From an uncultured Planctomycetia bacterium (lineage in GTDB: Bacteria; Omnitrophota; Gorgyraeia; Duberdicusellales; 4484-171), in assembly GCA_964629655.1 (NCBI GenBank), contig CAZVQU010000001.1:548056-612055 (forward strand): a stretch of 64,000 nt of DNA, written 5' to 3'. A model generated the notes under the pieces. That model did no database searches, was not told the DNA's origin, and saw nothing but the letters and a program-made list of their open reading frames with translations. Positions 15,710 through 37,252 of this stretch are shown one piece after another. Both the position numbers and the translations under genes were made by a program. Each line of letters begins with the position of its first letter. Position 1 is the stretch's first letter.

Positions 15710-15756
15710 GGTATTCCTTTATATCCGCTAACCTGTTTTTACTCGTAACGGTCTGC

Positions 15757-15950
15757 GTTTCCACGTGAAAACGCAAAAAAGTGTGATAATACCTCACTTT
15801 GTCAGAGGTGGCAAATTAGGCAATGCCGTTTCCACGTGAAAACCCAACAATGCAGGCGATACCGTTTTCACGTGAAAACGCGAAAAAGCTCGATAATACC
15901 GCACTTTACAAGGGGTGGCAAATTAATCTCTGCCGTTTCCACGTGAAAAC
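15757..15950. repeat. two tandem ~107-bp direct repeats carrying four parS-like palindromes (GTTTYCACGTGAAAAC)
   Basis: Palindromes lie at 15757-15772, 15828-15843, 15864-15879 (perfect GTTTTCACGTGAAAAC) and 15935-15950. Spacing is 71/36/71 bp, with a conserved gataatacc.cacttt...ggtggcaaatta element in each unit. They sit directly upstream of parAB. Canonical parS is TGTTTCACGTGAAACA. Confidence 0.6.
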
Positions 15951-15960
15951 GCGAAAAAGC

Positions 15961-15989
15961 TTGACATTGCCACGCTTTCTATTAAAATG
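15961..15989 (+). promoter_or_regulatory. candidate sigma70-type promoter for parA (TTGACA-17-TAAAAT)
   Basis: TTGACA at 15961-15966 and TAAAAT at 15984-15989. It abuts the annotated ATG, so the true parA start may be the second Met (MGKVIGI..., 15996). Confidence 0.4.
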
Positions 15990-16787
15990 AACAATATGGG
16001 CAAGGTGATTGGTATTTGCAATCAAAAAGGCGGAACTGGCAAGACGACCACAGCCATTAATCTAAGCTCAATTTTGGGCCTAGCCGAGAAAAAGACCTTG
16101 CTTATAGATATGGATCCCCAGGGTAATGCTACTTCAGGGGTTGGGTTTAATAGCCAAGAGAAAAACTCAATTTATGATGTAATTATGGACAAGGCCAACT
16201 TGTCCGAAAGTATTTACCCCACTCAGTGGCCCAATCTGCATATTATTCCTTCGGACATTTCTCTTACTGGTGGAGAAATCGAGCTAGTCAATATTGAAAA
16301 TAGAGAGTTACGGCTAAGAGATAAGATCGAGGCCATAAAAGATGACTTTTCCTATATTATTATCGATGCGCCACCGTCTTTAAGTTTGCTTGCAGTAAAC
16401 GTTTTGGCTGCTTCTGACAGTTTGATTATCCCAATCCAATGTGAATACTATGCTTTGGAGGGAGTTTCTAAATTAGTTAATACCATAGAATTAGTCCGTG
16501 AAAGGATGAGTCCTTCTTTAGATATTGAAGGGGTGCTTCTTACCATGGGGGATTTCCGTACTCGTCTTACCTTACAAGTAATAGAGGAGGTACGAAATTT
16601 TTTCCAGAAGAAAACATTTAATATTATTGTGCCTCGGAACATCAGGCTTGCTGAGGCGCCTAGCTTTGGTAAACCAATATGCTTTTATGATCCAGCTTGC
16701 GTAGGCAACAAGGCCTACTTGAATTTAGCCCAGGAAGTATTAAAGGAAAAAATAGAAATTAATCAATTAGCAAAGACAAGGAGTTAA
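15987..16787 (+). CDS. parA: chromosome partitioning ATPase ParA/Soj
   Basis: Deviant Walker A KGGTGKTT, of the MinD/ParA family. 266 aa. Confidence 0.9.
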   Translation: MNNMGKVIGICNQKGGTGKTTTAINLSSILGLAEKKTLLIDMDPQGNATSGVGFNSQEKNSIYDVIMDKANLSESIYPTQWPNLHIIPSDISLTGGEIELVNIENRELRLRDKIEAIKDDFSYIIIDAPPSLSLLAVNVLAASDSLIIPIQCEYYALEGVSKLVNTIELVRERMSPSLDIEGVLLTMGDFRTRLTLQVIEEVRNFFQKKTFNIIVPRNIRLAEAPSFGKPICFYDPACVGNKAYLNLAQEVLKEKIEINQLAKTRS

Positions 16788-16788
16788 A

Positions 16789-17616
16789 ATGGAGAGAAAG
16801 GTTTTGGGCAGGGGGCTAGACGCGCTTATCCCTAAGAAGACAGCGGCGATGCTACCGCGAGAGTTCAGTTATTTACCGGTGAGCAAGGTAAGGCCAGCTA
16901 AGCGCCAACCTCGGCAAGAAGTAAGCAAGAAGGAATTAGGAGAGCTAACTCGGTCGATTAAAGAGAAGGGGTTTATCCAGCCGATTGTAGTAAGGCAAGT
17001 CAGTGGTGGAACCTATGAAATTGTGGCTGGAGAGAGAAGGTATCAGGCTGCTAAGTCATTGGGGCTCAAGGAGATACCAACAATTATTAAAGAGCTAGAT
17101 GATAAGGATGCCTTTATTTTGGCAATCGTTGAGAACCTCCAGCGTCAGGATTTAAATCCAATAGAAGAAGCCCAAGCCTTTAAGCGGCTGTTTGAAGAGT
17201 TTAAATTTTCCTTAGAGGACATTGCTCAATTTGTTAGTAAAGACAAGACCACGGTAGTTAACACCTTGCGGTTGCTCAGGCTGCCTGATAAGATAAAGCA
17301 AGCTTTGCAGGAGGGGGTAATCACTCGGACTCAGGCCCGGACAATCTTAGGGGTGGAAAAACTCCAAGCCCAAGAAAAGCTATTCCACCAAATTCTAAGA
17401 GATGGTCTCTCAGTTAGAGAGATAGAAAAAAAAGTTCGGCTGGTATCAAAGAAGAAGAGAAAAGCAGATCCTTTTATCATTGAAGTAGAGGAGAGGTTTC
17501 AAAAATTACTGGGGACCAAAGTTAAGGTCTTTAACAAAAGGAATAATCGTGGTAGAATTGTTGTCGAATATTATTCCCTGGAGGACTTAGAGAGAATCAT
17601 TAAGAGACTGGGGTAA
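16789..17616 (+). CDS. parB: chromosome partitioning protein ParB/Spo0J
   Basis: 275 aa with the ParB N-terminal box (GERRYQAAK) and an HTH. It lies immediately downstream of parA. Confidence 0.9.
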   Translation: MERKVLGRGLDALIPKKTAAMLPREFSYLPVSKVRPAKRQPRQEVSKKELGELTRSIKEKGFIQPIVVRQVSGGTYEIVAGERRYQAAKSLGLKEIPTIIKELDDKDAFILAIVENLQRQDLNPIEEAQAFKRLFEEFKFSLEDIAQFVSKDKTTVVNTLRLLRLPDKIKQALQEGVITRTQARTILGVEKLQAQEKLFHQILRDGLSVREIEKKVRLVSKKKRKADPFIIEVEERFQKLLGTKVKVFNKRNNRGRIVVEYYSLEDLERIIKRLG

Positions 17617-17652
17617 AATCTCGTAAGTTTTTAGAAGGAGGTTTGTAAGCGA

Positions 17653-18159
17653 ATGGAAAACGAAGCTACCTTAGTTATTATTAAACCCGATGGGCTGAAA
17701 AAATCCCTTACCGGGAATATCTTAAGTAGGCTTTCTGAGGGTAAGTTGAAAATAATCGGAGCCAAAGTAATAAAAGTAGATATTAAGTTAGCCCATGAAC
17801 ACTATCACCATCTTCAGAAAGAACCGTTTTATCCGGAATTAACCAAATATATTACCGGCCAGCTTCACGGCGAGAACAGGGTTATGGCCCTTGTCTATTG
17901 GGGTGAGGATGCTATAAAAAAAGTTAGAGCTATAGCCGGCGAGACTAATCCTGAGCAAGCCGATCCGATAAGTATAAGGGGTGCCTACGGAAGGATTCTA
18001 ACAACTGGTTTGTTTGAGAATGCAATTCATGCCTCAAGCAGCATCGAGGAAGCTGAGAGGGAGATAAAACTTTGGTTTGAGCCAGATGAGATTGTTTATG
18101 CGCTTTATCCCTCAAAAAAAGTAGCCGAAGGAAATGGCAAAAAGGAGATTTGGGCATGA
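17653..18159 (+). CDS. ndk: nucleoside diphosphate kinase
   Basis: Starts TLVIIKPDG... The NDK active-site His region is present. 168 aa, with a C-terminal extension. Confidence 0.8.
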   Translation: MENEATLVIIKPDGLKKSLTGNILSRLSEGKLKIIGAKVIKVDIKLAHEHYHHLQKEPFYPELTKYITGQLHGENRVMALVYWGEDAIKKVRAIAGETNPEQADPISIRGAYGRILTTGLFENAIHASSSIEEAEREIKLWFEPDEIVYALYPSKKVAEGNGKKEIWA

Positions 18160-19798: not shown

Positions 19799-19873
19799 GG
19801 CGTGGTAGCCAAGTGGTAAGGCAGCGGTCTGCAAAACCGCTACGCGCCGGTTCAAATCCGGCCCACGCCTCCA
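19799..19873 (+). tRNA. tRNA-Cys (GCA)
   Basis: Cloverleaf with acceptor GGCGTGG / CCACGCC, anticodon loop CUGCAAA, T-loop GGTTCAAATCC. CCA is encoded. Confidence 0.85.
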
Positions 19874-19900
19874 AAATAAAAATCGTAAGCAATAAAATAT

Positions 19901-19986
19901 GCCGGGGTGTTGGAATTGGCAGACAACACAGACTTAAAATCTGTTGTTCCGTAAGGAACGTGCGGGTTCGAGTCCCGCCTCCGGCA
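19901..19986 (+). tRNA. tRNA-Leu (TAA), type II long variable arm
   Basis: Acceptor GCCGGGG / CTCCGGC, anticodon loop CUUAAAA, long variable arm, T-loop GGTTCGAGTCC. Confidence 0.85.
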
Positions 19987-20002
19987 TATTTTTATTTAGA
20001 GC

Positions 20003-20076
20003 GGGCGATTAGCTCAGTTGGCTAGAGTACTTCCTTGACATGGAAGGGGTCACAGGTTCAAGTCCTGTATCGCCCA
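20003..20076 (+). tRNA. tRNA-Val (GAC)
   Basis: Acceptor GGGCGAT / ATCGCCC, D-arm TAGCTCAGTTGG, anticodon loop UUGACAU, T-loop GGTTCAAGTCC. Confidence 0.85.
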
Positions 20077-20161
20077 TGGTTTTATATTATTTAGTGGAGG
20101 AAGAGGCACCAAAAGTTTATTTGACAGCACAAGAAAAGTTATCTATAATCTTACATCTGTC

Positions 20162-20240
20162 GGGGTTGTCGATTAGCCTGGCTTAAGTCCCCTGCCTGTC
20201 ACGCAGGTGATCGTGGGTTCAAATCCCATCGACCCCGCCA
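20162..20240 (+). tRNA. tRNA-Asp (GTC)
   Basis: Acceptor GGGGTTG / CGACCCC, anticodon stem-loop CCTGC-CTGTCAC-GCAGG, T-loop GGGTTCAAATCCC, CCA encoded. The D-loop is slightly long. Confidence 0.75.
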
Positions 20241-21911
20241 TTGAAACCAATTCGAACTCTTGTTCTTCTCATCGAGAAGGGCAAGAGTTTTTGCTTTTAT
20301 ATGGGCCAGATAATAAGGCTTAAACTTCCCTTCCTGAGCATTAACCACCGAATAGAAGTCATTATCAGAATCCAACACAGGCTCAAGTGCTATCGGGGAT
20401 AGGAGCTCTTTTAAGGCAAGCCCTGCAGAGGTGGCATTCTTGCTAAGGGTTTCACGTAAACGTCTTAAACGGTGTCTTATCCATTCTGCAGGAGGGGATT
20501 TAAAGGTGTTCTGCTTCTGGAATTCTAGAGATTTTATCTCTTCTGTTAACAACTCAAATCTCGATTCACAGTGCTTTAATGCCTCGGATACGGCCTTTGA
20601 AAAGTTACCTAACTTAATGTAATTAAGGTAGTTTTGCATCTCCAAAGAAAGCTTATCATATTGGGCTCTTTTCTTTTTAGTAGTCTCAGGGTTGGTGTTT
20701 AATCTTTTTGCTATTTCGGTTTCTAGATTCTTGTAAATGTAGCTTACATTATCGGGAGTTAAGATCTTTTCTTGCAATGCAGCGAGGATGATTTTTTCTA
20801 TGCGTTTACGGGATACCAGTAATTTATTAGTACAGGTTTTACGCCGAAAATTATAACAACCGTAGTAACCGCCGCCTTTTCCGCTGACAAGAACAATTGG
20901 CCCGTTACAACAGTGGCATTTCATGGTTCTTGAAAAAAGATGAGTTGGGGCACAATGGACATAACTTCTTTGTTTTTGGCCGCTCGCTCTTGCCTTTTGA
21001 GATAGAGGATAGGCGCCTACCATTTTGGACCATCTTTCTTGGGTTTTATTCCAAACATCCTGCTCAATAATTATTAAATCTTTTCTGGGTGTGGATAAAT
21101 GTTCTTTTTCGGGGCGTGAAACAATTTTCTTTTTTCCGGTTAAAGGATCTCTTACAGTTTTGGTTGTTTTCCATATCCATATACCGATATACTTTTTGTT
21201 CTGTAAGATTCTACGTAAACTGGAAATATTCCAACCGCCGGAAAGGCCGCGTTTAGTAGGGATTTTGCCCTCATTGAGGGCTGCCGCTATTTTCCGTAAG
21301 CTTTTACCTCTGGAGAATTCAGTGAATATTCTTTTTACTATATCGGCTTGCTCAGGATTTATTTTATGAACCATCCCATCATGTTTTGCTTCGCCTCTTT
21401 TACCAACCCTTAGCTCGCCGACCGGTTCGGTAAAATAACCAAATACATTCTCGCCTACACTAAAGCCGCGGATTTTCTGGCCTTCTAGTCCACGCATAGT
21501 TTTCTTTTTGAGGTCATCAAGATAAAGCTCATTCATTAGCCCGCGCAGATGAATGCCTAATTTTGAATTATCGTCATCAGTAGAAATACCGTCGGAAACA
21601 GAAGTAATCTTTATCTGCAGATAGTTGAATTTTAGAACCAAAGTTAACATCTGATGGTTGCTTCGCGATATCCGAGATAAGTCGTCTACAATTACAGTAT
21701 CAAATTCTTTATTCTCAGCAGCTTTCTCCAAAGCCTGCAACCCGGGCCGGTCAACAATAGAACCCGAGATTGCCTCATCAATGTAGATATGCTCATCTTC
21801 CACAAGAAAGTTATTTTTGCTGGCATAGTCTTTGCATACGCGTATTTGATCGTCAATACTCCTAGCGCTTTGGTTTTCAGAGGAGTAGCGGGCATATATG
21901 GCAACTTTCAT
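20199..21911 (-). mobile_element. large serine recombinase (resolvase catalytic domain + recombinase domain + zinc-ribbon/coiled-coil); its 3' end overlaps the tRNA-Asp 3' end
   Basis: 570 aa. The N-terminus MKVAIYARYSSENQ...DDQ is the serine-recombinase catalytic motif. A C-terminal Cys cluster (C..C..CYNFRRKTC) follows. The last ~14 codons are encoded inside tRNA-Asp on the opposite strand. Confidence 0.85.
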
Positions 21912-22199: not shown

Positions 22200-22305
22200 A
22201 TTTAAAATACTTGATTCTTTTTAAAGACGAGCTAAAATATCATTAAATTAAAAGCAATAAAGTAATAGCAATCTATTAATACAATATTAGCAATATATTG
22301 ATAGT

Positions 22306-22530
22306 TTGTCAAGCAAAAAAATAGGAGTTTTTATGCTCTCAGCAAACATTAAAAAACTAAGAAAAAGACACCACTTGTCTCAAGAACAACTCGCCCAAAA
22401 GGCAGGAATTACCTACAGCACTCTTATCAAGATAGAATCCGGGTCAAACAAAAACCCAACCCTGGAGACCTTAACAAAACTGGCTACTGTATTTAAAATC
22501 AAGATAGATGAGTTGGTGAAAAAGTTATAA
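22306..22530 (+). CDS. XRE-family helix-turn-helix transcriptional regulator
   Basis: 74 aa with the HTH_XRE core LSQEQLAQKAGITYSTLIKIESG. Confidence 0.7.
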   Translation: MSSKKIGVFMLSANIKKLRKRHHLSQEQLAQKAGITYSTLIKIESGSNKNPTLETLTKLATVFKIKIDELVKKL

Positions 22531-22559
22531 AAGGTCACTCTGCATTTCTTGAGAGAGCA

Positions 22560-23195
22560 ATGAAAAGGATAAGTTCAGAAAGGGAGTTGTTAAGTAAGTG
22601 TTTGTCGAATGACAAGCATGCATGGGATGAATTTGTCCAGCGTTATACTAAATTAATTTTTAGCTTAATATATCGAACCCTTGAGTTCAAAGGGTATCGG
22701 ATAGAAAAGGATCTTGTGAGCGATCTTCACCAAGATGTTTTTTTGTCCGTCCTAAAGGATGATTATGCGAAATTAAGAAGATTCAAATGGAAGAATGGAT
22801 GTTCTCTGGCTACGTGGATTGGTGTCATAACAAGAAATTTAGTCTTAAATTTCATTAGAAGCAATTCAAAACAAAAGTATCTAACAAAATCTCTCGATGA
22901 ATCTTTTGGCAATGAAAACGAAAAACAGGCAACGCTTTTAGATGTAATCAAAAACCCCGCCCCAAACGCTAAAGAGGTAATGAATGAATCTGAAATGATT
23001 GATTTGCTCAATGCTTCTATAGAAAAACTTGAGATTACAGAAAGAGTAATCCTCGATTTATTCTATGCTCAAACCTTACCGCTTGAAGAAATAGGGAGAG
23101 TTTTAAACAAATCTGAAGATGCTGTATTTATGCAGAAAAAGAGAGTTCTTGCAAAATTACAAGAAATAATGAAAAAAGGCGTTGGTTTTAGATAA
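22560..23195 (+). CDS. ECF (sigma-70 family) RNA polymerase sigma factor
   Basis: 211 aa with sigma region 2 (DEFVQRYTKLIFSLIYR...DLHQDVFLSVL) and region 4 HTH (LPLEEIGRVLNKSEDAVFMQKKRVLAKL). Confidence 0.8.
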   Translation: MKRISSERELLSKCLSNDKHAWDEFVQRYTKLIFSLIYRTLEFKGYRIEKDLVSDLHQDVFLSVLKDDYAKLRRFKWKNGCSLATWIGVITRNLVLNFIRSNSKQKYLTKSLDESFGNENEKQATLLDVIKNPAPNAKEVMNESEMIDLLNASIEKLEITERVILDLFYAQTLPLEEIGRVLNKSEDAVFMQKKRVLAKLQEIMKKGVGFR

Positions 23196-23226
23196 TTTAG
23201 CTGTCTATTGATTACGGGGTGATAAT

Positions 23227-23952
23227 ATGAAAAATAAATTTGAATCTATTCTGAAAAAAGTTCTTAATGCTGTGAAAAAACGAAAAAATAGCAATACTGG
23301 AAAAAGGTGCTTAACTGACGAAGATTTAACCGTCATTGTTGAGGGAAAAACTTCAGAGGTTGAACGGGATAAGGTATTTAGCCATATCCTATCTTGCCAA
23401 AATTGCGCTTTGTTACTGAAAGAGCATTTATTAATCATGGGTGATTTAGATAAAAAAGGCATGCTAGAGACTCCTCAAGAATTAATTCAAGCCGCGATGG
23501 ATCTAGTCGGTCCAGGTATAGCATCTAATATGTTAGAAGTTGTTTTAAATCTTAAGGAGAAGGTAATAGAATTAGTAAAAGCCACGGGTGATGTTCTAAT
23601 CGGGCCGGAATTAATCCCTGTGCCGGTTTTGAGAAGCCAAGGGAAAGACGACAAATTCGAGAACAAGGTGAAAATTGTCAAAGCTTTTGATAATGTTTTG
23701 ATAGAAGTAGTTGTAGAGAGAAAAAAGCCAAATATCTGTGATATCGAGTTAAGATTAACGGAAAAGGATTTGAAGAGAAAGGCAGAAGGTTTACGAGTTA
23801 CGTTAATGAAAGACAATAAAGAAATAGAGTCATCTTTGATAGATGAAGGTAAAATTATCTTTAGGGAAATTAAACCAGATAGATATAAAATTTCTATCAT
23901 GAAAGAGGGGAAACAACTAGGCGCAGTCGATATTTCGATGAATTTAACTTGA
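23227..23952 (+). CDS. putative zinc-finger (ZAS, zf-HC2) anti-sigma factor, soluble
   Basis: 241 aa with the H-x3-C-x2-C motif (HILSCQNC) near the N-terminus and no TM segment. It lies immediately downstream of the ECF sigma gene and 12 nt upstream of the CHAT gene. Confidence 0.55.
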   Translation: MKNKFESILKKVLNAVKKRKNSNTGKRCLTDEDLTVIVEGKTSEVERDKVFSHILSCQNCALLLKEHLLIMGDLDKKGMLETPQELIQAAMDLVGPGIASNMLEVVLNLKEKVIELVKATGDVLIGPELIPVPVLRSQGKDDKFENKVKIVKAFDNVLIEVVVERKKPNICDIELRLTEKDLKRKAEGLRVTLMKDNKEIESSLIDEGKIIFREIKPDRYKISIMKEGKQLGAVDISMNLT

Positions 23953-23964
23953 TAAGCCGCTATT

Positions 23965-26900
23965 ATGGTTACTTTAGTCGTTGAAATTAGCAAAGAAGGT
24001 GACCGTCTGAAAATGGGTGCTTTTGAAAGGTCAAAAGGCCTAGATGTAACTTTAAAACACTATAACGATTGTTACGTCTCAGATGAAAAAATTGAAAATC
24101 TTTGTGGAGAGATAACCTACCTTTTTAATAAGGCAAATCGACAAGGAAAAGTAGGCGAAAACTTTGCTAGTGATTTAAAGAAGATTTGCCGAACCCTTTT
24201 CGACCAACTACTTACCTTTGAAGTCAAGAAAGCAATAAAGAACACTGAGGCAAAGTTCTTACTGATCTCTATTGATGAAAAATTAGTTCAGATTCCTTGG
24301 GAGCTTCTTCATGATGGAGATGAGTTTTTATGTATCCGTTTTGCAATGGGTAGAAGCGTAAAGACTAAGCAAAAGAATTATGGAAGTCGCTACCGTAGCG
24401 TGAGCAGTCCCACAAAAATGTTGATTGTTGCAAATCCGACAGGAGATTTGAATTCTGCTTACGAAGAAGGTATATATATCCGCAATGAATTAGATAAAAG
24501 AAAAGGTAAGGTAAGAGTATTTTCAAAGACAGAAGATGTAAGTATTGACTTTGTAAGAAAGAATATCAGAGATTACGATATCTTTCATTTTGCTGGCCAT
24601 GCGGAATATAATTCAATAAATCCTTCTGAAAGTGGCTGGATTTTAAAAGATGGTAAATTTACTGCTAAGGAAATCGTAGAACTCGGAGCAACATCCCCTT
24701 TACCCTCAATAATTTTTTCTAATGCTTGTCAATCTGGCAAGACAACCGAGTGGAAAGTAGGTAAAGAATTCGAAGATGAAATATACGGGTTAGCTAATGC
24801 TTTTCTTCTAGCAGGGATTCGTCATTATATAGGCACATTTTGGAGAGTTTTGGACGAACCGTGTTTGTGCTTTGCTAACGAATTTTATAAGAATGTTACC
24901 GATGGCTTACCAATTGGAGAAGCTATACGATTATCTAGAATACAACTTATTAATAAGTATGGATATTCTTCAATTGTCTGGTCAAGCTATATGCTTTATG
25001 GAGATCCCGCAATCAATCTGTTCTTTGTCTCGACAGTCAAAAAACCATTAAAAGAGAGAATTTTTCAAAGGCAGATCATAATTTTGTCTATAATATTGGG
25101 TTCAATTATTGGGACAGGCTTATCAGGGTTTCTTCTCTATCGAAACTATTTCTCACGGCCAATTGCTCAAGAAAGCCCCGCGTGGGCACATAGAAACATT
25201 GTTTTGATTATGCCTTTCGAAAACTTGAACAGGGATAAAGAAACTGATTGGATGGGTCTAGGGATTGCTAATGTCGTGGCTACAAAATTAAACAAATTAG
25301 ACAAAATAAATGTAGTCGATAGGTTTCAGGCTGAGCTAATATGGAAAGAAATTAAAAAGGCCGACTACGTTGATAAAGAAAGCGCTTTGAAGATAGCTAA
25401 GATTTTAGGTGCAGACCGGATTATTCTTGGATCGTTTCAGAAAATTGATGATGATATACGAATATCAGCTCAGCTGTTCAATGTTAAAGACGATTCCTTG
25501 ATTGGGTCAGTTGATGCCAGTGATTCATATAGCAATTTCTTTTCTTTGGAAGATACCGTGGCTTTAAGCATAGGGGATAAATTGAATATTAAAATAAGTA
25601 AGCGGGAAAGATCTGAGTTGAGCAAGTTTTTGCCTACAGAAAACATTAGTGCATTTGAATTCTTAACCAAATCTATCTCGGCGTTTACTGAGAGAGATAT
25701 AAATAAAGCAGTAGATTTCTGCAAAAAAGCTCTAGAATTAGACCCTAATTATATTCAAGCAAATACAAATATGGGGTTATTGTATGATTCATTAGGCAAT
25801 TTAGACCTGGCTAAAGTTTATTACGAGGAAGCATTAGAATTAACCAAGAAGAGCGAAGATAAAAATTTATTTGTAACGGCCTATTTTAATTTAGGTAAAC
25901 TTCTTGGACGAACAGGTCAATGGAAGGAAGGAATGGAGCTTCAAAGAAAGGCACTAAAAATTGCAGGAAATCTAAGTAATCAGCAAGTTTATGCTTCGAT
26001 TTTGTACAATATAGGACTATCTTATATTGCAAATAACGAGTTTAATGAGGCTAAAAAGTCATTATTTGAAAGCAAAGCTATTTACGAGACATTGAATAAT
26101 CAATTTGGTTTGGCAGCTATTCATCTGGGATTAGGAATCTACTACTCTTACAACCAAGAAGCAGATTTTGATAAGGCTGAGAAGTATTATGATGAAGCAA
26201 TAAGGATTTCCGAGAATCTAAACTCTAAAGAAGGACTTGCTAAAATTTATTCTATTTTGGGTGGACATTATCATACAAGAGGAGAGTGGGAGAAAGGCAG
26301 TATTTACTTTGTTAAATCTTTGAAGGTGAGTCAAGAAATTAATGACAGTTGGTCAGAGAATCTAGCCTATTGTGGTCTTGCTAAGAGCTATGAAGAAAAA
26401 GGAGAGTTTGGTAATGCTCTAGAATATTACAAAAAAAGTCTAAAACTGACCGAAGAGGCAGGTAATCGCACGGGACACAAAAATACTCTATATTCGATAA
26501 GTTCGTTATATTTAAGACAATTGCGTAATGATATGGGATTAAAGTATTTGAATATGTTAGTTGAAGAGGCAAAAAAAGATAAAGATGAACGTAACCAGAT
26601 ATTAGGGTTACGGTGGATAGCTAGTACTTATTATTCAATGGGAAGATACGAGAAAGCTATGGAAGGATATAATAAAGCTTTAACTTTTAATGAGGCGCTC
26701 AATAGCGACAGAAATAGTTTAATGCAGATATATCTTGGTTTAGGAAAATGTGTTGGTCAATTAGGTAATAATACCGAAAGCGAAAAGTATTTTGAATTAG
26801 CTAAAAAAGAAGTACTTGGTGTGAAGGAATATATTACACTGGGATATATTTATCAACAAATTGGAACATTTTATGAGAATAAAGGCAGAATGGATAGAGC

Positions 26901-29694
26901 GATACGAAATTACATGAAAGCAAGCGAAAGTTTAACCAAGGACAAGCTAAATAACTATTCTAAGTTTCAATTAGTGGGTATATATTTTGGGTTAGCCGAA
27001 TGTTATAAAAAGCAGAATAATAAAGCTAAAGCCTTTCAGTATTACAAAAAAGCCTTGCCTTTTGCCGAAGAAACCAGTAGCCCAATCATTAATACCATTA
27101 AAAGTAATTTATATTTTATCGATAAGGGGAAAGAGGAGCAAGCCGATGAGATAAAAAACATTGAAGCAAAAAAATTATATATCCAGGCTAGAAATAATTT
27201 TTTCAATGGTGAGCACGATAAAGCCTTGGTGGCGATTAAAAAAGCTTACAAGAAAGAGCCATTCAGTAGCAATATCGTTAGTTTGATTTGTTTAACTTAT
27301 GAGGATATGGGTCGATATGATGAGGCTACTGATATTCATTTAAAATATATAAAATTGTTAGACAAAAAAGAAGACATTTCTGAAATTATTGCCCAATATT
27401 CTTGGATAGGGGGAAATTATCGTAAGATTGGGAAATTAGATAAAGCAAAAACCTATTATGATAAAGCTCTAGGATTAGCCAAGAATGCTGGGAGCAAAGA
27501 AGATATAGGTTTAGTTTATGCTGATTATGGTATGGTGATGGAGGCCTTGGGACAAGATGAAAGAGCTATAGAGTTTGCGAATAAAGCGATTGAATTTTAC
27601 AAGGGGGCTTCAAAAGTAAATTATTTAACTAATGCATATCACGTATTGAGCCTTGTTTATTCGAAACAAGGAGATACGAATAAAGCTTTAGAGTATGCTC
27701 ACTTAAATCTTAAAATTAAAGAAGAGTCAGGTAGCGGGGACATGGAAAGAAGTTACATAAATTTAGGGTCACTCTATAAAGATATAGATATCGTCAAGTC
27801 TTTGGAATACTTAAATAAAGCTATAAGTTCTCTTGAGAAGAAAGGGCAGCTATCTCTTTTAGGCAATGCGTACCATGAGACTGGCTCAGTATATGAAGGA
27901 ATGAAACAAAGTAATAAAGCTTTGGAGTTTTACAATAAAAGTCTTGCGCTTTCTGATAAGTTGAATGATGCATGGACGACATATGCGAACTATCTGGCGT
28001 TAGAGCATCTATACTTTAAGACAAAAGAATATAAACTTTCAGAAGAATTTAGAGAAAAACTTATAAATCTAGCTAAAGAATTAGGACGAGAGATAGACTT
28101 AGGCATAATTTACGGGGCTATTGGGGATAGGTATATTGATGAAGATTTTGACAAAGGAGAAAAGTACTTTTTAATGAGTATAGAGATTTTAGAAGGATAC
28201 AAGAACAACGAATATAAAAATAAGGAGATTTTGAAAACACTAGCTATTGATTATGATACTTTGGGCATGTTATTTGGCAAAAGGAAAAATTGGGATAAAG
28301 CAATAATGAATTTTCAAAAAGCTATTGATATTGCAGAGTCACACAATGTTTTAGATAAATCTTTGCTTGGAAATACGTATTATTGGTTCGGTGTTTGCTA
28401 TCATTATAAGAATGATTTTAAAAAGGCGTTAGAATATTACAGAAAAGCTAGACCCGCTCTTTTAGCAGCCGAAGAAGGTAGAAGCCTTATAAAGAAACTA
28501 GATAATCAAATAAACATATTAGAGACTTATCTTTCTCTTGCAGGGGAAGTTCAAGATTTTGATGGAATTTTAAAAGCAGCTGAGGATTATCATAGAGAAG
28601 ATAAGTGGGAATTAGCACTTGAAAATTACAAAAAGGCATTAGCGATTGCTGTAACGCTTAAAGATGGTGCATTAAAGGATTCAGTCAACAAAAAAATAGA
28701 GTGGATACATAAGCAGATAAACAGAATAGAGACCTATTTTAAAGAAGTGGAAGTATCCAAAAAAGCGAAACCAGCAGGCTACCTAGAAAGCAAGGCCATT
28801 CTATATATGAGACAAGGCAAATATAATGTGGCGTTAGATAATTTCAAAAAAGCTTTAAAAATCTATGAGAGTGTGGATTATAAAGAGCAGATGAATCTTA
28901 GCAAAATGCGGATAGGATTTGTTTATCTAACCAAAAATGATTTTAAAAATGCCGAAAAACTATTCAAGGAAAGCATGAATACATTTAAAGATTTGGAAGA
29001 TAAAGAATATATTGGCTTGGTTCATGGAGCATTTGGTATTTTATTTGAGAAAAAAGGGAAATATAATCAATCTGAAAAAGAATACCATATAGCGATAGAT
29101 TTGCTTAAAGAAAGTGAGTCGTCAAAAACATACGATGTAGCATATTATAACTGTTTGGGATCCGTATATTATAAAAAGCAAAATTATAATAAATCCTTGG
29201 AAAGCTACCAAATGGCTCTTGAATTAGGGAAAGAGATAGAGGATCCAAACTCGATTAGTTTAACCTATGCTATGATGGCATATGTAAGCTTTTTGAATGG
29301 CTCTTTTGAAAAAGCTAATAATTTTGCTGATAATTCCTTAGTTGTAGCGGAAAGACTAGATGACATGGAACTTATTTGTATTGCTAGTTTAGTGAAAGGA
29401 AAAGCTTTCATGAGGCAAAGTGATTATGAGATGGCCACCCAGTTTTTTGATAAAGCTATTAATAGTGCTAATTCTTGCAATAAAAATAAATTAAAGTTGG
29501 TTTCGTATTCGAATATGGCTTTACTTGCCAAAAAAGAGAAGGACGGAAATTCATATAAGAAATTACTTAGTTTTATTAAGGAAATGGGTAGTTTTGATTG
29601 TATCAAGGGTGACGAAATACTAGATAACAGGTTGGAGATACTATTTAAGGAAATAATTGAAGAAAAGGACTTTTTTAAGCGAATTTGGTTATGA
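23965..29694 (+). CDS. giant CHAT-domain (caspase-like) protease with one TM helix, a TolB-N-like domain and a ~30-repeat TPR array
   Basis: 1909 aa. CHAT motifs IPWELLHDG, the His FHFAGHAEYN and the Cys IIFSNACQSG are present. A TM helix lies around aa 365-392. FENLNRDKETDWMGLGIANVV... resembles TolB-N-like sensor domains. The remaining ~1400 aa are TPR-like repeats. Confidence 0.85.
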   Translation: MVTLVVEISKEGDRLKMGAFERSKGLDVTLKHYNDCYVSDEKIENLCGEITYLFNKANRQGKVGENFASDLKKICRTLFDQLLTFEVKKAIKNTEAKFLLISIDEKLVQIPWELLHDGDEFLCIRFAMGRSVKTKQKNYGSRYRSVSSPTKMLIVANPTGDLNSAYEEGIYIRNELDKRKGKVRVFSKTEDVSIDFVRKNIRDYDIFHFAGHAEYNSINPSESGWILKDGKFTAKEIVELGATSPLPSIIFSNACQSGKTTEWKVGKEFEDEIYGLANAFLLAGIRHYIGTFWRVLDEPCLCFANEFYKNVTDGLPIGEAIRLSRIQLINKYGYSSIVWSSYMLYGDPAINLFFVSTVKKPLKERIFQRQIIILSIILGSIIGTGLSGFLLYRNYFSRPIAQESPAWAHRNIVLIMPFENLNRDKETDWMGLGIANVVATKLNKLDKINVVDRFQAELIWKEIKKADYVDKESALKIAKILGADRIILGSFQKIDDDIRISAQLFNVKDDSLIGSVDASDSYSNFFSLEDTVALSIGDKLNIKISKRERSELSKFLPTENISAFEFLTKSISAFTERDINKAVDFCKKALELDPNYIQANTNMGLLYDSLGNLDLAKVYYEEALELTKKSEDKNLFVTAYFNLGKLLGRTGQWKEGMELQRKALKIAGNLSNQQVYASILYNIGLSYIANNEFNEAKKSLFESKAIYETLNNQFGLAAIHLGLGIYYSYNQEADFDKAEKYYDEAIRISENLNSKEGLAKIYSILGGHYHTRGEWEKGSIYFVKSLKVSQEINDSWSENLAYCGLAKSYEEKGEFGNALEYYKKSLKLTEEAGNRTGHKNTLYSISSLYLRQLRNDMGLKYLNMLVEEAKKDKDERNQILGLRWIASTYYSMGRYEKAMEGYNKALTFNEALNSDRNSLMQIYLGLGKCVGQLGNNTESEKYFELAKKEVLGVKEYITLGYIYQQIGTFYENKGRMDRAIRNYMKASESLTKDKLNNYSKFQLVGIYFGLAECYKKQNNKAKAFQYYKKALPFAEETSSPIINTIKSNLYFIDKGKEEQADEIKNIEAKKLYIQARNNFFNGEHDKALVAIKKAYKKEPFSSNIVSLICLTYEDMGRYDEATDIHLKYIKLLDKKEDISEIIAQYSWIGGNYRKIGKLDKAKTYYDKALGLAKNAGSKEDIGLVYADYGMVMEALGQDERAIEFANKAIEFYKGASKVNYLTNAYHVLSLVYSKQGDTNKALEYAHLNLKIKEESGSGDMERSYINLGSLYKDIDIVKSLEYLNKAISSLEKKGQLSLLGNAYHETGSVYEGMKQSNKALEFYNKSLALSDKLNDAWTTYANYLALEHLYFKTKEYKLSEEFREKLINLAKELGREIDLGIIYGAIGDRYIDEDFDKGEKYFLMSIEILEGYKNNEYKNKEILKTLAIDYDTLGMLFGKRKNWDKAIMNFQKAIDIAESHNVLDKSLLGNTYYWFGVCYHYKNDFKKALEYYRKARPALLAAEEGRSLIKKLDNQINILETYLSLAGEVQDFDGILKAAEDYHREDKWELALENYKKALAIAVTLKDGALKDSVNKKIEWIHKQINRIETYFKEVEVSKKAKPAGYLESKAILYMRQGKYNVALDNFKKALKIYESVDYKEQMNLSKMRIGFVYLTKNDFKNAEKLFKESMNTFKDLEDKEYIGLVHGAFGILFEKKGKYNQSEKEYHIAIDLLKESESSKTYDVAYYNCLGSVYYKKQNYNKSLESYQMALELGKEIEDPNSISLTYAMMAYVSFLNGSFEKANNFADNSLVVAERLDDMELICIASLVKGKAFMRQSDYEMATQFFDKAINSANSCNKNKLKLVSYSNMALLAKKEKDGNSYKKLLSFIKEMGSFDCIKGDEILDNRLEILFKEIIEEKDFFKRIWL

Positions 29695-29739
29695 TAATTT
29701 GATATAAATCATTTTTGTACAAGGAGTTAGGTACTTATA

Positions 29740-29770
29740 GGGCACATACTAAATGTGCCCTATTTTTTTG
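29740..29770 (+). terminator. intrinsic terminator after the CHAT gene
   Basis: Hairpin GGGCACAT-actaa-ATGTGCCC followed by TATTTTTTT. Confidence 0.7.
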
Positions 29771-29820
29771 TTGGTTTTGCGATCTTGTGTTGTCTATTGT
29801 TAGTGAAGGAGGTGATAAGA

Positions 29821-29988
29821 ATGAAAAAGCTAATGTTTTCAATAGCAATTTTGATTGGGTGCATGAGTGTAGTTAATAATGCTTTTGCTAGAGTAGACCG
29901 CGATACCAATAGGTATATTTGTAATAGATGGGAAAGCTCACAAGAAGCTAGTGGTTTAAGTGATTTGTTAAAAGGAGGTTTAAGATGA
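29821..29988 (+). CDS. small secreted peptide 1 (signal peptide ending NAFA|R)
   Basis: MKKLMFSIAILIGCMSVVNNAFARVDRDTNRYICNRWESSQEASGLSDLLKGGLR. AAGGAGGTGA SD lies 7 nt upstream. This is the trimmed start of ORF 29755..29988. Confidence 0.5.
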   Translation: MKKLMFSIAILIGCMSVVNNAFARVDRDTNRYICNRWESSQEASGLSDLLKGGLR

Positions 29989-30136
29989 GAAGAGTAGTTA
30001 TTAGCTTGATGGTTGCTTTGGTGATTATGGGAAGTTCAGTATTAGCCTATGCACACTCAGGAAGGACAAGGACTGACAGTTGGGGGCGAACGGGACACAC
30101 CAACAGGTCAACAGGAGTATGGGAGACACATTATTA
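29985..30136 (+). CDS. small secreted peptide 2
   Basis: MRRVVISLMVALVIMGSSVLAYAHSGRTRTDSWGRTGHTNRSTGVWETHY, 50 aa, with signal peptide and AAGGAGG SD. It is below the ORF-track cutoff. Confidence 0.4.
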
Positions 30137-30180
30137 ATACTTTTATGGATAATTCTAAAGAGTTAAAGAGGAGGTACAAA

Positions 30181-30372
30181 ATGAAAAAATTTATAATTTC
30201 CTTAATAGCAATAGGCATAATTTTTAGTTCAGCTGGTAATGCATTCGCACGGATTAAGTATATTAACGGCTATTACAGAAGTAGTGGAACCTACGTTAAT
30301 GGACATTACAGAGATGTATCTAACGACGGGAATCCTTACAATAACGCAAATTATCTTGGCTATAATTGGTAA
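30181..30372 (+). CDS. small secreted Tyr/Asn/Gly-rich peptide 3 (signal peptide ending NAFA|R)
   Basis: MKKFIISLIAIGIIFSSAGNAFARIKYINGYYRSSGTYVNGHYRDVSNDGNPYNNANYLGYNW. GAGGAGGT SD lies upstream. This is the trimmed start of ORF 30049..30372. Confidence 0.5.
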   Translation: MKKFIISLIAIGIIFSSAGNAFARIKYINGYYRSSGTYVNGHYRDVSNDGNPYNNANYLGYNW

Positions 30373-30390
30373 TATATAAATATAATAAAA

Positions 30391-30418
30391 GGGTGCCATC
30401 AAGGGCACCCTTTTATTT
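30391..30418 (+). terminator. intrinsic terminator
   Basis: Hairpin GGGTGCC-atcaa-GGGCACCC followed by TTTTATTT. Confidence 0.75.
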
Positions 30419-34099: not shown

Positions 34100-34590
34100 C
34101 TAATTATCCAACTGAACTTTCTTTAGTGTAAATTTCAAAAACGCACTTTCTTAACCTTATCTTATATACCCGCGACTTAGGAATCCAGATTTTCTTGCCG
34201 TTGCAGTAAACCAAAATAGCCTTTTCGGTTTCGTGGAGGAAGCGGATTTTTAGCCATATTTTTCCTCGCCAAGGGTATTTTGGGTAATAACTGTAGAAAA
34301 ACTAAAACATATCTTATCCTTCCTTATAATTACAGGCTTTTCGCGCTGTTGTTTTGTCAATATTTAGGCTTTTGGCTATGCTTTCATAAGACATGCCTAG
34401 TAGACGTAATTGTTTGACTTTTTGGGATATTATCTGGTATAATGCTCTTCGCTTGGCGGGTTCAATAACAACGGTAACCTTGATTTCTGATAAGGTTCGA
34501 ATTGGTTGCAGGCGCGCCCGCCATTTGTTTTATTATCCAGCTGTTTTTCGAAAAAGAATAACTTTACGTGCATCCTTGACTTTTTATCGA
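34100..34590 (-). pseudogene. decayed transposase/IS remnant (HTH fragment, no intact ORF)
   Basis: Minus-strand frames give ...LRLLGMSYESIAKSLNIDKTTARKACNYKEG* (a transposase-type HTH) and ...KIPLARKNMAKNPLPPRNRKGYFGLLQRQENLDS*. They are interrupted by stops and frame changes. The ~500 bp has no plus-strand coding. Confidence 0.3.
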
Positions 34591-34596
34591 AATATA
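34562..34596 (+). repeat. 35-bp element TTACGTGCATCCTTGACTTTTTATCGAAATAT (copy 1), immediately upstream of the BTLCP-like gene
   Basis: Identical copy at 35266-35297 upstream of the BY-kinase gene. It contains a TTGACT -35-like hexamer. Confidence 0.55.
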
Positions 34597-34599
34597 AAA

Positions 34600-35250
34600 A
34601 TGCCAAAGAGACCAAACAAGCCCCAGGTTAAAACAATCCTGGCAAGACACTACAGAATCTTGGGGAAATCTTTTCTTCCCATCCTAGCACTTATTTTTTT
34701 CCTGAATCCCATTCTTGTTTTGGCGAATTCAGAATTTACCGGCAACATTGTTATTAGGCAGCAGACAAAAACCGCTAGCGGTATTTCAGTTTGCGGACCG
34801 GTTACAGTAGACCTGGATATTTTAGATATTATTTGCCGGGCGAACATAAAGTCCCTTGAAGATTACGAACGCTGGCTGCAAAAAACAGTTAAATACAAAG
34901 GGGACGATGGTGCTGATGTATGGTCCTTGCCGGAGGAAACCCTTACCAAAAAGTATGGCGATTGTGAAGATCTTGCGTTTTTAAATAAAGCGTTTCTCCA
35001 TGTATTGGGTTATCAGCCGAAAGTAATGGCCCTGGTAAGATTTGGCGATAAAAAAGGACATGCCATCTGCGTCTTTGAAGAAAACGGTTATTACCTATGG
35101 TTTGATAATACCAGTCTTAATAAAATTTCAGCAGCATCTATTGAAGAATTTTCCGATTATGTCCTCATGAATGGTTTGTATACTATGCTTTTTGAAATTA
35201 ATGTTGGCGACGAGAAGCAAAATATTCTAAGCGCTGGCATTATAGAATAG
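34600..35250 (+). CDS. secreted transglutaminase-like cysteine peptidase (BTLCP-like)
   Basis: MPKRPNKPQ... with signal/TM, Cys motif YGDCEDLAF and downstream His GHAICVF. The long N-terminal extension of ORF 34393..35250 is discounted. Confidence 0.55.
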   Translation: MPKRPNKPQVKTILARHYRILGKSFLPILALIFFLNPILVLANSEFTGNIVIRQQTKTASGISVCGPVTVDLDILDIICRANIKSLEDYERWLQKTVKYKGDDGADVWSLPEETLTKKYGDCEDLAFLNKAFLHVLGYQPKVMALVRFGDKKGHAICVFEENGYYLWFDNTSLNKISAASIEEFSDYVLMNGLYTMLFEINVGDEKQNILSAGIIE

Positions 35251-35265
35251 AACAGAAAACAGCCT

Positions 35266-35297
35266 TACGTGCATCCTTGACTTTTTATCGAAATATG
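35266..35297 (+). repeat. second copy of the 35-bp TTACGTGCATCCTTGACTTTTTATCGAAATAT element
   Basis: Exact repeat of 34565-34596. Confidence 0.55.
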
Positions 35298-35319: not shown

Positions 35320-36258
35320 ATGATACCATCGCTAAAAGCCAGAAGGCTTACTACCAAAGAGCATCTCAACATAATCTTTTGCAGACACGCTATAACAATC
35401 ATAATCCTAACTATTAGTTTTGGGATTTTTGCTATTGTTGCCCAAAGGAATATTCCTTTAACGATTATGGCTGGGTTTGTCCTTAGTGTAGCCCTAAGCT
35501 ATTTTTTAGAGTCCCTAGACTCAACATTAAAGACCCCCGAAGATGTAGAGTGTTGTGCGCGGTTGCCTTACTTAGGATATATCCCTTCGATAGAAAAAGA
35601 ATTCAAGAACAGGAAGGATGCTGATTTAGTTTTTCACCATCGACACTATTCTTATGTAGCCGAAGCCTTCAGAAAGGCTAAGGAATCACTTCTTTCTGCT
35701 TGCTCGACAGGGAATCCGCTTAAGACTTTTGTGGTTAGTAGTTTTATACCTAAAGAGGGAAAGAGTTTTGTGGCTACAAATCTCGCTATAGCCTTTGCAG
35801 CTGCCGGAGAACCAACACTGTTGATTGATGGAGACATGCGAAAAGGAAGGCTCAATAAAATCTTTGATGTTGAGAATGTGAAAGGACTGTCTAATGCTCT
35901 GGCTGGAGCGTCTTCTTTCCAGGAAACAGTCACCCCGACAAAGATAAAGAACCTTTCGCTGCTACCTTTAGGCGCAGCGTCTCCTAACCCTATAGAGCTG
36001 TTAAAGGTAAATAAGATAAAAGCGATTCTGCAAGAAGCTGGAACAAAATTCAAAAAGATAATTATTGATGCCCCTCCGGTGCTAAGTGTTACTGACGCTC
36101 TTGTGTTTGGCAGTGAATGCGACGGGTTAGTTTTTGTGATTAAAGCCGGCGTGACTCCTTTCCAACACATTGTAGATGCCCAAAAAATGATTGGCGGCAG
36201 AGTAAAAATTCTAGGCGCACTATTAAATAGCGTAGATGTTAAAAAGAGCCGGCAGTAA
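35320..36258 (+). CDS. polysaccharide co-polymerase / BY-kinase family protein (CpsD/Wzc-like tyrosine kinase ATPase with N-terminal TM segments)
   Basis: Two TM helices followed by a ParA/MinD-like ATPase with Walker A FIPKEGKSFVATNLA, Walker A' LIDGDMRKG and Walker B IIIDAPP. Confidence 0.7.
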   Translation: MIPSLKARRLTTKEHLNIIFCRHAITIIILTISFGIFAIVAQRNIPLTIMAGFVLSVALSYFLESLDSTLKTPEDVECCARLPYLGYIPSIEKEFKNRKDADLVFHHRHYSYVAEAFRKAKESLLSACSTGNPLKTFVVSSFIPKEGKSFVATNLAIAFAAAGEPTLLIDGDMRKGRLNKIFDVENVKGLSNALAGASSFQETVTPTKIKNLSLLPLGAASPNPIELLKVNKIKAILQEAGTKFKKIIIDAPPVLSVTDALVFGSECDGLVFVIKAGVTPFQHIVDAQKMIGGRVKILGALLNSVDVKKSRQ

Positions 36259-36346: not shown

Positions 36347-36420
36347 GGCGGCGTAGCTCAGGCTGGTAGAGCAAACGGCTCATACCCGTTGCGTCAGTGG
36401 TTCAAGTCCACTCGCCGCCA
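36347..36420 (+). tRNA. tRNA-Met (CAT) (could be the tRNA-Ile2 lysidine type)
   Basis: Acceptor GGCGGCG / CGCCGCC, anticodon stem-loop AACGG-CTCATAC-CCGTT, T-loop GGTTCAAGTCC. Confidence 0.8.
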
Positions 36421-36446
36421 TTTTTAATTTTAAAAAAAAGGGAAAA

Positions 36447-37227: not shown

Positions 37228-37252
37228 TTTTTTTCGTCAAGAAAGGAGTATT

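Follow-up and report, generated by a model that had tools for sequence, protein, structure and literature searches.

A conserved ECF sigma, ZAS anti-sigma and membrane CHAT protein module as a candidate protease-gated transcription switch

Introduction

Extracytoplasmic function (ECF) sigma factors come under control by several known routes, including regulated intramembrane proteolysis (RIP), partner switching, conformational change, phosphorylation and C-terminal extensions. In RIP (the RseA/DegS/RseP and RsiW systems), site-1 and site-2 proteases cut an anti-sigma factor that spans the membrane. Here we describe a locus in a 64,000-nt stretch of DNA from an uncultured bacterium, probably one of the Candidatus Omnitrophota (contig CAZVQU010000001.1, positions 548,056 to 612,055; hereafter the window), in which an ECF sigma factor, a soluble anti-sigma factor with a ZAS-type zinc domain and a large membrane protein with a CHAT caspase-like protease domain are encoded together.

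The closest described systems also bring proteases and sigma factors together. The cleavage of the sigma inhibitor Csx30 by the CHAT protease Csx29 is experimentally established (PMC10028731). For DdvA, CHAT autoproteolysis has been proposed as the site-1 step, and DdvA-like proteins are confined to the Myxococcota and one Comamonas species (PMC11506125). Neighborhoods of caspase or CHAT genes and ECF sigma genes have been noted computationally, and proteolytic control proposed for them: these are ECF54 (PMC8999054, PMC7826278), whose listed context also includes “carboxypeptidase” (regulatory-like) domains, and the combination of an EACC2-caspase with an ECF sigma factor and DUF1822 (PMC8195603). 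In the searchable literature we found no earlier description of the architecture reported here beyond the precedents Csx29-Csx30, DdvA-DdvS, CalpL-CalpT-CalpS, ECF54 and EACC2.

Results

A Conserved Three-Gene Module

Calling of open reading frames (ORFs) in the window gave four co-directional ORFs on the forward strand (22306-22530, 22560-23195, 23227-23952, and 23965-29694). A first-pass annotation of this DNA had read them as genes for an XRE regulator, an ECF sigma factor, a zinc-finger anti-sigma factor and a CHAT protease; the ORF calls and Pfam agree with these domains and coordinates, and the 12-nt gap that it placed between the anti-sigma stop and the CHAT start (23953-23964) is exact. 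The conserved module comprises three of the four: the ECF sigma factor, the soluble ZAS anti-sigma, and the CHAT protein, which crosses the membrane once.

We fetched 78 metagenome loci via the CHAT domain and searched them with hidden Markov models (HMMs) built from the sigma and anti-sigma proteins (labels L001-L088 denote the related metagenome loci compared with the window). Homologues of both proteins are encoded directly upstream of the CHAT gene, on the same strand, in 38 of the 47 unique loci whose sequence extends 1.6 kb or more upstream of the homologous CHAT gene; the anti-sigma is present in all loci of the window type, in which CHAT lies at the N-terminus (22/22), and across loci the anti-sigma and CHAT genes mostly lie −10 to +10 nt apart. 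Similarly, in five out of five annotated neighborhoods of close relatives, the sigma gene, a gene for a 240-aa protein and one or two CHAT-TPR genes occur together (in one of the five the order is CHAT-sigma-anti-sigma). Thus the earlier expectation that the genes are conserved neighbors holds for sigma, anti-sigma and CHAT, far more often than chance would allow; it fails for the XRE gene, which has a homologue in a few close relatives only and is not a core member of the module as had been proposed.

The survey relies on loci found via the CHAT domain because a scan of a genome collection misses most of the anti-sigma family: searched with the anti-sigma alignment, the collection yielded one species representative (an Omnitrophota metagenome-assembled genome), as the word and pattern steps of the scan miss most of this divergent family. 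As the sole query, the anti-sigma sequence found only seven close homologues. The anti-sigma family comprises about 190 representative clusters (50% identity; E <= 1e-30) among 1.84 billion representatives, and the first 350 aa of the CHAT protein share 45-60% identity with at least 789 protein clusters. The latter have a common architecture, an optional N-terminal class III adenylate cyclase followed by CHAT, a transmembrane (TM) span and one of several ectodomains (TPR, CsgG-like, DUF4384, discoidin, or trypsin). The family is found in records named Omnitrophota, Nitrospirae, Desulfobacterales and Pseudomonadota. The sub-family with the N-terminal class III adenylate cyclase includes about 25 loci (within L032-L088; for example, L039 2369-5653), 17 of which keep the sigma/anti-sigma pair; this fusion suggests a dual output, cAMP plus proteolysis.

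The Sigma Factor

The sigma gene (22560-23195, forward strand) encodes a 211-aa protein, whose only Pfam regions are Sigma70_r2 (E = 7e-7) and Sigma70_r4 (E = 8e-6); it scores 79.4 bits with the NCBIfam model sigma70-ECF TIGR02937 (cut-off 42.9), and no hydrophobic (TM) span was found in it. When the profile of the sigma family was compared with the PDB, SigW was the best match (E = 9e-17), and SigH and SigE were also matched. The r2 and r4 regions alone, the TIGR02937 score, the adjacent anti-sigma and the two-block promoter described below together assign it to ECF group 4; the domain matches confirm the ECF identity first proposed for it.

The CHAT Receptor

The CHAT protein (1909 aa) is encoded on the forward strand, and four parts can be distinguished in it. 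The cytoplasmic protease domain (aa 1-352, 23965-25020) matches Pfam CHAT PF12770 (E = 8e-35, aa 73-347). A single TM helix (aa ~369-391, 25069-25137), the sole hydrophobic span in the 1909 aa, is oriented with the N-terminus inside. It is followed by an extracytoplasmic TolB_N/FlgO/LpoB-like domain (aa ~410-540, 25192-25584), which was recognized by Pfam (FlgO, E = 5e-4; LpoB, E = 0.014) and by Foldseek (TolB N-terminal domain, 4r40_C, E = 2.5e-7), and then by extracytoplasmic TPR repeats spanning about 1350 aa (25642-29694; TPR_12, E = 3e-98, with TPR_1, TPR_2, and TPR_MalT). This TPR region is presumed to be a ligand-binding sensor.

The active site expected of a CHAT protease passes inspection on alignment: the catalytic His212 (codon 24598-24600) and Cys255 (codon 24727-24729), together with H208, G211 and N253, are invariant in alignments of 13 and 53 sequences, with G-H and N-A-C motifs flanking the dyad. 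The AlphaFold2 (AF2) model of aa 1-560 has a pLDDT of 87.7, with a helix predicted at 362-396. A Foldseek search with the CHAT domain returned Csx29 (8eey_B, E = 2.6e-13) as the best match, followed by craspase TPR-CHAT, separase (1.7e-12), gingipain (4.8e-8) and SAVED-CHAT (9.5e-8). The model match and the conserved catalytic His and Cys place the domain in the CHAT (PF12770) family; its modeled fold is that of the caspases and hemoglobinases, and the fold and the invariant dyad predict that it is an active protease.

The TM span directly follows the CHAT domain in 107 of 113 relatives, in which the mean count of Lys and Arg residues is 3.7 before the span and 2.0 after it. Some relatives carry class III adenylate cyclase domains, which depend on ATP, fused N-terminally to CHAT, and relatives have C-terminal domains of a periplasmic type. 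The charge bias, the N-terminal cyclase fusions and the TolB_N/FlgO/LpoB-like segment after the TM span all place the CHAT domain in the cytoplasm, with the soluble anti-sigma, while the TolB_N-TPR part (about 1500 aa) is predicted to lie outside the cytoplasmic membrane. A protease tethered to a transmembrane sensor, as the first-pass annotation had it, is what this single TM span and the extracytoplasmic module describe.

Additional CHAT genes accompany the receptor gene in many related loci. There is a second, shorter CHAT-TM-TPR receptor gene in L007/L016, L008/L015 and L014; and downstream CHAT paralogues in the more distant L045, L060, L066, L068, L076 and L080 have CHAT at the C-terminus, with N-terminal TPRs (the classical TPR-CHAT order) at least in L045 and L068.

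The Anti-Sigma Protein and Its Invariant Arginine

The anti-sigma gene (23227-23952, forward strand) encodes a soluble 241-aa protein with an N-terminal ZAS-type zinc domain, a disordered linker, and a C-terminal immunoglobulin (Ig)-like or CarboxypepD_reg-like beta-sandwich. Its zinc ligands C28, H53, C57 and C60 (CHCC) are invariant or nearly so in the family; in a set of 134 representative anti-sigmas, sharing at most about 50% identity with one another, the H53-x3-C57-x2-C60 motif (codons 23383-23406) is conserved to 99% (H53), 99% (C57) and 100% (C60). The protein has no TM span (maximum 19-residue hydropathy of 1.26). These conserved ligands and the missing hydrophobic span bear out its earlier description as a soluble ZAS-type protein; the zf-HC2 domain expected with it could be confirmed only in relatives, since the window protein has no Pfam match over threshold (zf-HC2, PF13490, E = 0.12, 13 bits against a cut-off of 22.2), whereas 40 of 57 family members match zf-HC2 at E <= 0.01 (best 1.2e-6). 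CarboxypepD_reg is matched by 11 of the 57 relatives.

In the AF2 model (from the 57-sequence alignment; overall pLDDT of 75.7), the zinc ligands lie in a helical part (helices 31-38, 44-56, 58-70, and 83-93; pLDDT about 60-80), the loop 127-143 has a pLDDT below 50, and residues 147-240 form an Ig-like sandwich with a pLDDT of about 90. The protein is predicted to be a soluble ZAS-type anti-sigma that would hold the ECF sigma factor via its zinc-bound helical domain.

Among the 134 representatives, strict conservation is confined to the zinc ligands, to a few sandwich residues (R190, E199, S202, and Y220 are invariant in that domain), and to one residue of the loop, Arg136 (codon 23632-23634; PVPVL-R-SQG). 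Arg136 is invariant in 134/134 sequences, the preceding position (P2) is hydrophobic in 131/134 and the following one (P1′) is Ser, Gly or Ala in 113/134, within a loop where the flanking residues are variable and gap-rich. Arginine specificity is known in separase, metacaspases and gingipain R, and by analogy Arg136 in its disordered linker looks like the cleavage site (P1 residue) of an Arg-specific protease of the caspase fold.

Promoters and the Predicted Regulon

The motif GTTGGTT-N15-GTCTATT has exactly two copies without mismatch in the window, both on the forward strand. The first (23181-23209) runs over the final codons of the sigma gene and stops 18 nt short of the anti-sigma ATG; the second (29770-29798) lies 22 nt before the first of three small peptide genes. 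The position of copy 1 is also occupied in L001, L007, L008, L011, L013, L014, L018, L019 and L026, and that of copy 2 in L001, L007, L008, L012, L014 and L020 (with a variant in L009, L019, L045, and L068). A terminator-like hairpin with a T-run (29737-29763, forward strand) stands just after the CHAT stop, and its equivalent, followed by conserved sequence, is found after CHAT in L001, L007, L008, L012, L014 and L020; another hairpin with a 14-bp stem (30384-30417) closes the peptide transcription unit.

Across the window and all loci (0.9 Mb), the motif with at most one mismatch has 29 matches, 28 of which are at these two positions and on the operon strand. A superfamily consensus, TGtaAGaaa-N-CGTCTATT, is found at 42 of 49 sigma/anti-sigma junctions (2.3 expected), and the degenerate form TG[TC][TA][AG]G-N17-GTCTAT has 60 matches in 767 kb, all on the operon strand and none on the opposite strand (by our estimate fewer than one is expected by chance). 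By its sequence, with two blocks and a −10 element of the CGTC type, the motif is typical of ECF promoters. We infer that two units are driven by the sigma factor, one (the anti-sigma/CHAT genes) for feedback and one (the peptide genes) for output; the shared motif before both units backs the earlier suggestion that the small secreted-peptide genes are part of the sigma regulon.

No copy of GTTGGTT-N15-GTCTATT precedes the sigma gene, so classical autoregulation of the sigma factor through this motif is unsupported; when the regions upstream of the sigma genes were screened blindly for shared two-block k-mers, no convincing common promoter emerged either. In relatives, further copies of the motif precede other small ORFs and BNR/sortilin-like proteins (L031 and L055), all with extracytoplasmic products. 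L008 has a third exact copy (10311-10339) before small ORFs, and an operon with alpha-2-macroglobulin and PBP1C-type genes (10691-16622) begins about 350 nt further on; this copy hints that the regulon may include protection of the envelope against proteases.

Small Secreted Peptides

The three genes behind promoter copy 2, all on the forward strand, encode precursors of 50-63 aa with AxA-type signal peptides and mature parts rich in Tyr, Gly, Asn, Arg and His. Peptide 1 (29821-29988; 55 aa) has a signal peptide ending in NAFA before an Arg, and is a gene call in the identical contig L002. Peptide 2 (29985-30137; 50 aa; ...AYA, then HSGRT...) is YHYH-like: its match to NCBIfam YHYH_alt (E = 1e-3) is below the cut-off, which one relative attains, and homologues are encoded downstream of the CHAT genes in L001, L007, L008, L014 and L020. 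Peptide 3 (30181-30372; 63 aa; ...AFA, then RIKYINGYYRSSGTYVNGHYRDVSNDGNPYNNANYLGYNW) is the best conserved, with homologues directly downstream of CHAT genes in 10 distinct loci (tblastn, E from 1e-7 to 1e-21; duplicate fetches of four loci were set aside). A role of the peptides as effectors is possible; a more speculative one is that of ligands for the TPR ectodomain.

Cassettes of three to five such genes, for precursors of 46-76 aa, follow the CHAT genes in the window (29821-30372) and in relatives (L001 13060-13960, L007 9732-10600, L008 9741-10260, L014 12242-12760, and L020 2931-3460). Three types of peptide recur: a variable one, a YHYH-like one with HSGRTD...GGHYN, and one with IKYVxxYxRSNGTYVSGxxKDTSHDGNPYNNANYLG. 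A few genes downstream of the module, L001 (13971-14720), L007 (10665-11414) and L009 (13410-14141) encode a SIMPL-domain (PF04402) protein, and a faint BamE-like protein is found near the module in L001 and L007; both proteins are absent from the window.

Genomic Context

The XRE-family HTH regulator is encoded directly upstream of the sigma gene (22333-22530, forward strand). Its ORF is open from a TTG at 22306, and the start is most likely the ATG at 22333, which gives a 65-aa product and matches the gene call in the identical contig L003. It matches Pfam HTH_3 (E = 5e-18) and, under the cut-off, an NCBIfam RstR-like repressor model (E = 7e-15). An XRE homologue stands upstream of the sigma gene in L013 only, and in L014 the sigma ORF has an HTH-like N-terminal extension. 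AT-rich imperfect repeats (22236-22303, with three AGCAAT copies at a period of 14/22 nt) lie directly upstream of the XRE gene, toward the divergent recombinase gene, and could be operator sites for the XRE repressor.

That gene encodes a large serine recombinase (20199-21911, reverse strand; Resolvase, Recombinase, and Zn_ribbon_recom domains), and its 3′ end overlaps tRNA-Asp (20162-20240), which belongs to an adjoining cluster of four tRNAs (Cys, Leu, Val, and Asp; 19799-20240). A homologue with 64% identity occupies the same divergent position beside the module in L014. The limited recurrence of the XRE and recombinase genes, in a few close relatives, makes them accessories rather than core components. 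G+C content falls from about 0.40 to 0.32-0.36 across about 22-34 kb of the window, and this drop and the recombinase fit the island that the first-pass annotation had placed here; the module region is probably an integrated mobile island. No direct repeats delimiting it were found around the recombinase.

Other repeats occur elsewhere in the window. For 49 nt, the 3′ part of tRNA-Met is present twice as an exact direct repeat (36377-36425 and 37184-37232, 807 bp apart), which looks like the att-site duplication of a further small integrated element or its remnant; Pfam gave no match for the ORFs in and after the repeat (36795-37109 and 37196-37897). Another direct repeat, of 39 nt (92% identity), has one copy inside a transglutaminase-like gene (34557-34595, gene 34393-35250) and the other (35258-35296) before a ParA-like gene (35320-36258). 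The genes yidC (14258-15709), parA (15987-16787) and parB (16789-17616) are accompanied by a 107-nt tandem repeat of 1.8 copies between yidC and parA (15756-15950), and cumulative GC skew has its minimum near 12-14 kb; the 12000-17700 region probably includes the chromosomal replication origin.

Discussion

A Proposed Signal-Gated Anti-Sigma Protease

The reading that we favor, with a probability of roughly 55%, is that the cytoplasmic CHAT domain of the receptor cleaves the anti-sigma after Arg136 in response to a signal. A ligand, probably a protein or a peptide, would bind the ectodomain and activate the CHAT domain, which would then cut the anti-sigma linker after Arg136; the damaged anti-sigma would be lost, directly or through further degradation, and the freed sigma factor would take RNA polymerase to the GTTGGTT-N15-GTCTATT promoters. 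Expression of the anti-sigma/CHAT unit would act as a feedback that resets the system, and the peptide operon would be the output. No intramembrane protease would be needed, because CHAT lies in the cytoplasm and the anti-sigma is a soluble protein of its own; and one anti-sigma may serve several proteases, since many related loci carry two or three CHAT genes. The gene linkage, the domain identities, the topology, the invariant residues and the promoter motif are established; the conservation, the topology, the invariant residues and the promoter wiring make the analogy with protease-gated sigma release a well-grounded one.

Several points weigh against this reading. That the anti-sigma binds the sigma factor and is cut, where the cut falls and what the signal is are all inferred, and Arg as the P1 residue is assumed for this CHAT domain from separase, metacaspases and gingipain R; the cuts made by craspases follow Leu or Met (PMC11506125), and the invariant Arg136 could instead be a contact residue. 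The motif is assigned to this sigma factor from its position and conservation. The CHAT family also has other partners or substrates and works in other contexts, because 8 of the 25 cyclase-CHAT relatives lack the sigma and anti-sigma genes; upstream of these 8 are genes for Ser/Thr kinase-FGE-sulfatase proteins or CsgG/LpoB-like proteins, or unrelated housekeeping genes. Finally, the CHAT protein could be an output rather than an input, as the anti-sigma/CHAT genes follow a sigma-type promoter.

The last point can be developed into the alternative that survives best, though we consider it unlikely: the ZAS anti-sigma would itself sense a cytoplasmic cue (thiol oxidation, as RsrA does) and release the sigma factor, which would raise expression of the CHAT receptor and the peptides, and the CHAT protease would cut other substrates, for example in envelope remodeling or cell death. 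The conservation of all four ZAS ligands would suit such a sensor, and some CHAT relatives do occur without the sigma pair. The conserved ECF-type promoter directly before the anti-sigma/CHAT genes agrees with it too, but ECF systems often put their own regulators under sigma control, so the promoter position does not discriminate. This alternative leaves three features unexplained: an invariant Arg in a disordered anti-sigma linker; the near-obligatory, often overlapping pairing of the anti-sigma and CHAT genes; and a cytoplasmic protease with a 1500-aa ectodomain.

The coupling could also be non-proteolytic, which seems rather improbable. The Ig-like domain would dock on CHAT, either tethering the sigma factor at the membrane or acting as a securin-like pseudo-substrate inhibitor, ligand binding would shift the docking (partner switching) and leave the anti-sigma uncut, and the protease would cut another target or itself. 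The conserved extra domain of the anti-sigma, with its invariant R190, E199, S202 and Y220, speaks for this, and there are precedents in separase, which is under pseudo-substrate control, and in the self-cleavage proposed for DdvA (PMC11506125). A strictly conserved residue is however found in the linker, not solely in the domain; and the invariance of the catalytic dyad means that catalysis matters, which weakens the docking model.

We give still less credence to an anti-phage or conflict function, in which the receptor would sense proteins of phages or competitors in the periplasm and the sigma factor would induce defense effectors, as has been proposed for DdvA/DdvS; such a role would be compatible with the cleavage mechanism. 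The low-G+C island beside a serine recombinase and a tRNA cluster points this way, as does the recombinase beside the module in L014, and the precedents that link CHAT to sigma factors are defense-linked (PMC11506125, PMC10028731). Against this, mobile-element genes are not seen in most related loci, PADLOC finds no defense-system protein in or around the module, and instead of nucleases or toxins the predicted regulon has small secreted peptides and BNR/sortilin-like proteins, with an alpha-2-macroglobulin operon further downstream. Least likely of all is a wider reading, in which these receptors are a new and widespread means of signaling across the membrane to ECF sigma factors, cutting the anti-sigma after the invariant Arg, and the sigma-induced peptides are themselves the ligands of the TPR ectodomain; the module would then form a self-contained autocrine or quorum-type circuit (peptide out, TPR sensing, caspase cut, more peptide).

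If the signal-gated cleavage is real, ECF control would gain a further route, in which a receptor cuts a soluble anti-sigma with a caspase-like domain of its own in the cytoplasm, and the protease-to-sigma logic of type III CRISPR accessory modules would serve ordinary envelope signaling too. The family is large and widespread in uncultured bacteria, its at least 789 clusters of CHAT receptors carrying interchangeable ectodomains and some an adenylate cyclase. Being compact (a sigma factor, a 241-aa inhibitor, a 360-aa protease domain, and a defined promoter), the module is also a possible orthogonal protease-gated transcription switch, and its predictions reduce to one Arg, one Cys and one promoter motif.

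Comparison With Known Systems

The module recalls RIP, as an extracytoplasmic signal is proposed to lead to proteolytic destruction of the anti-sigma and release of an ECF sigma factor; unlike in RIP, it would be the receptor protease, not the anti-sigma, that carries the signal across the membrane. With a hydropathy maximum of 1.26 and no TM span, the anti-sigma is not of the RIP-controlled type.

As in the Csx29/Csx30/CASP-sigma (RpoE) system (PMC10028731), an ECF sigma factor is encoded together with a CHAT protease and an inhibitor, here one predicted to bind sigma, and the inhibitor, like Csx30, has two domains with a flexible connection. Csx29 is also the best solved structural match of the CHAT domain; in Csx29, however, CHAT is not N-terminal and membrane-tethered as it is here, the TPRs here are extracytoplasmic, and the CHAT sequences share only about 15% identity. 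Nor does the locus belong to the type III-E craspase accessory modules: a repeat search found no CRISPR-like array in the 64-kb window, no cas genes or Cas domains were found in the five annotated related neighborhoods, and there is no PADLOC match. The type III-E components Cas7-11/gRAMP and Csx31 are missing from the window and those neighborhoods, and in this respect the parts do occur without cas genes or an array, as first noted.

We rejected the anti-sigma as a Csx30 homologue: phmmer found no match to it among PDB sequences, and Foldseek of its whole model against the PDB (where Csx30 is in 8eey) found no match under E = 1e-3, only generic Ig-like sandwiches (E > 3e-3). Unrelated to Csx30 in both sequence and predicted fold, it is an analogue and not a homologue. 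A profile search with the CHAT domain against all PDB chains had no match either, and with the PDB sequence searches empty, there is no sequence basis for claiming homology to Csx30, Csx29 or DdvA. Thus the analogy to the Csx29/Csx30/RpoE circuit proposed in the first-pass annotation stands for the co-encoding of the three parts and the Csx29-like CHAT fold; it does not extend to the ancestry of the anti-sigma.

DdvA/DdvS of Myxococcus xanthus (PMC11506125, PMC6061681) similarly joins a CHCC ZAS domain, an ECF sigma factor, a single TM span, TPRs and CHAT in one unit, and there too CHAT proteolysis is proposed as the trigger (PMC11506125). DdvA is however one polypeptide with a periplasmic TPR-CHAT part, whose autoproteolysis would be followed by RseP (PMC11506125), whereas here the anti-sigma is separate and soluble and CHAT is cytoplasmic; with two genes, an anti-sigma without a TM span, and CHAT N-terminal of the TM span on the cytoplasmic side, the locus does not encode a DdvA-type anti-sigma.

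In CalpL/CalpT/CalpS (10.1101/2024.05.08.593097, PMC11417357), as proposed here, a signal-activated cytoplasmic protease cleaves a soluble anti-sigma and frees an ECF-like sigma factor; CalpL is a type III CRISPR SAVED-Lon protease activated by cyclic oligoadenylate, and that system has no membrane receptor, CHAT or ZAS domain (10.1101/2024.05.08.593097, PMC11417357). ECF54 is actinobacterial and described without an anti-sigma, and the caspases of the EACC2 systems are soluble and have EACC2 and variable domains. As neither description includes a CHAT-TM-sensor receptor or a ZAS anti-sigma whose linker has an invariant Arg, the module is set apart from both by their descriptions. It is a member of none of the Csx29-Csx30, DdvA-DdvS and CalpL-CalpT-CalpS systems, and is a variation on the known theme of protease, anti-sigma and ECF sigma factor.

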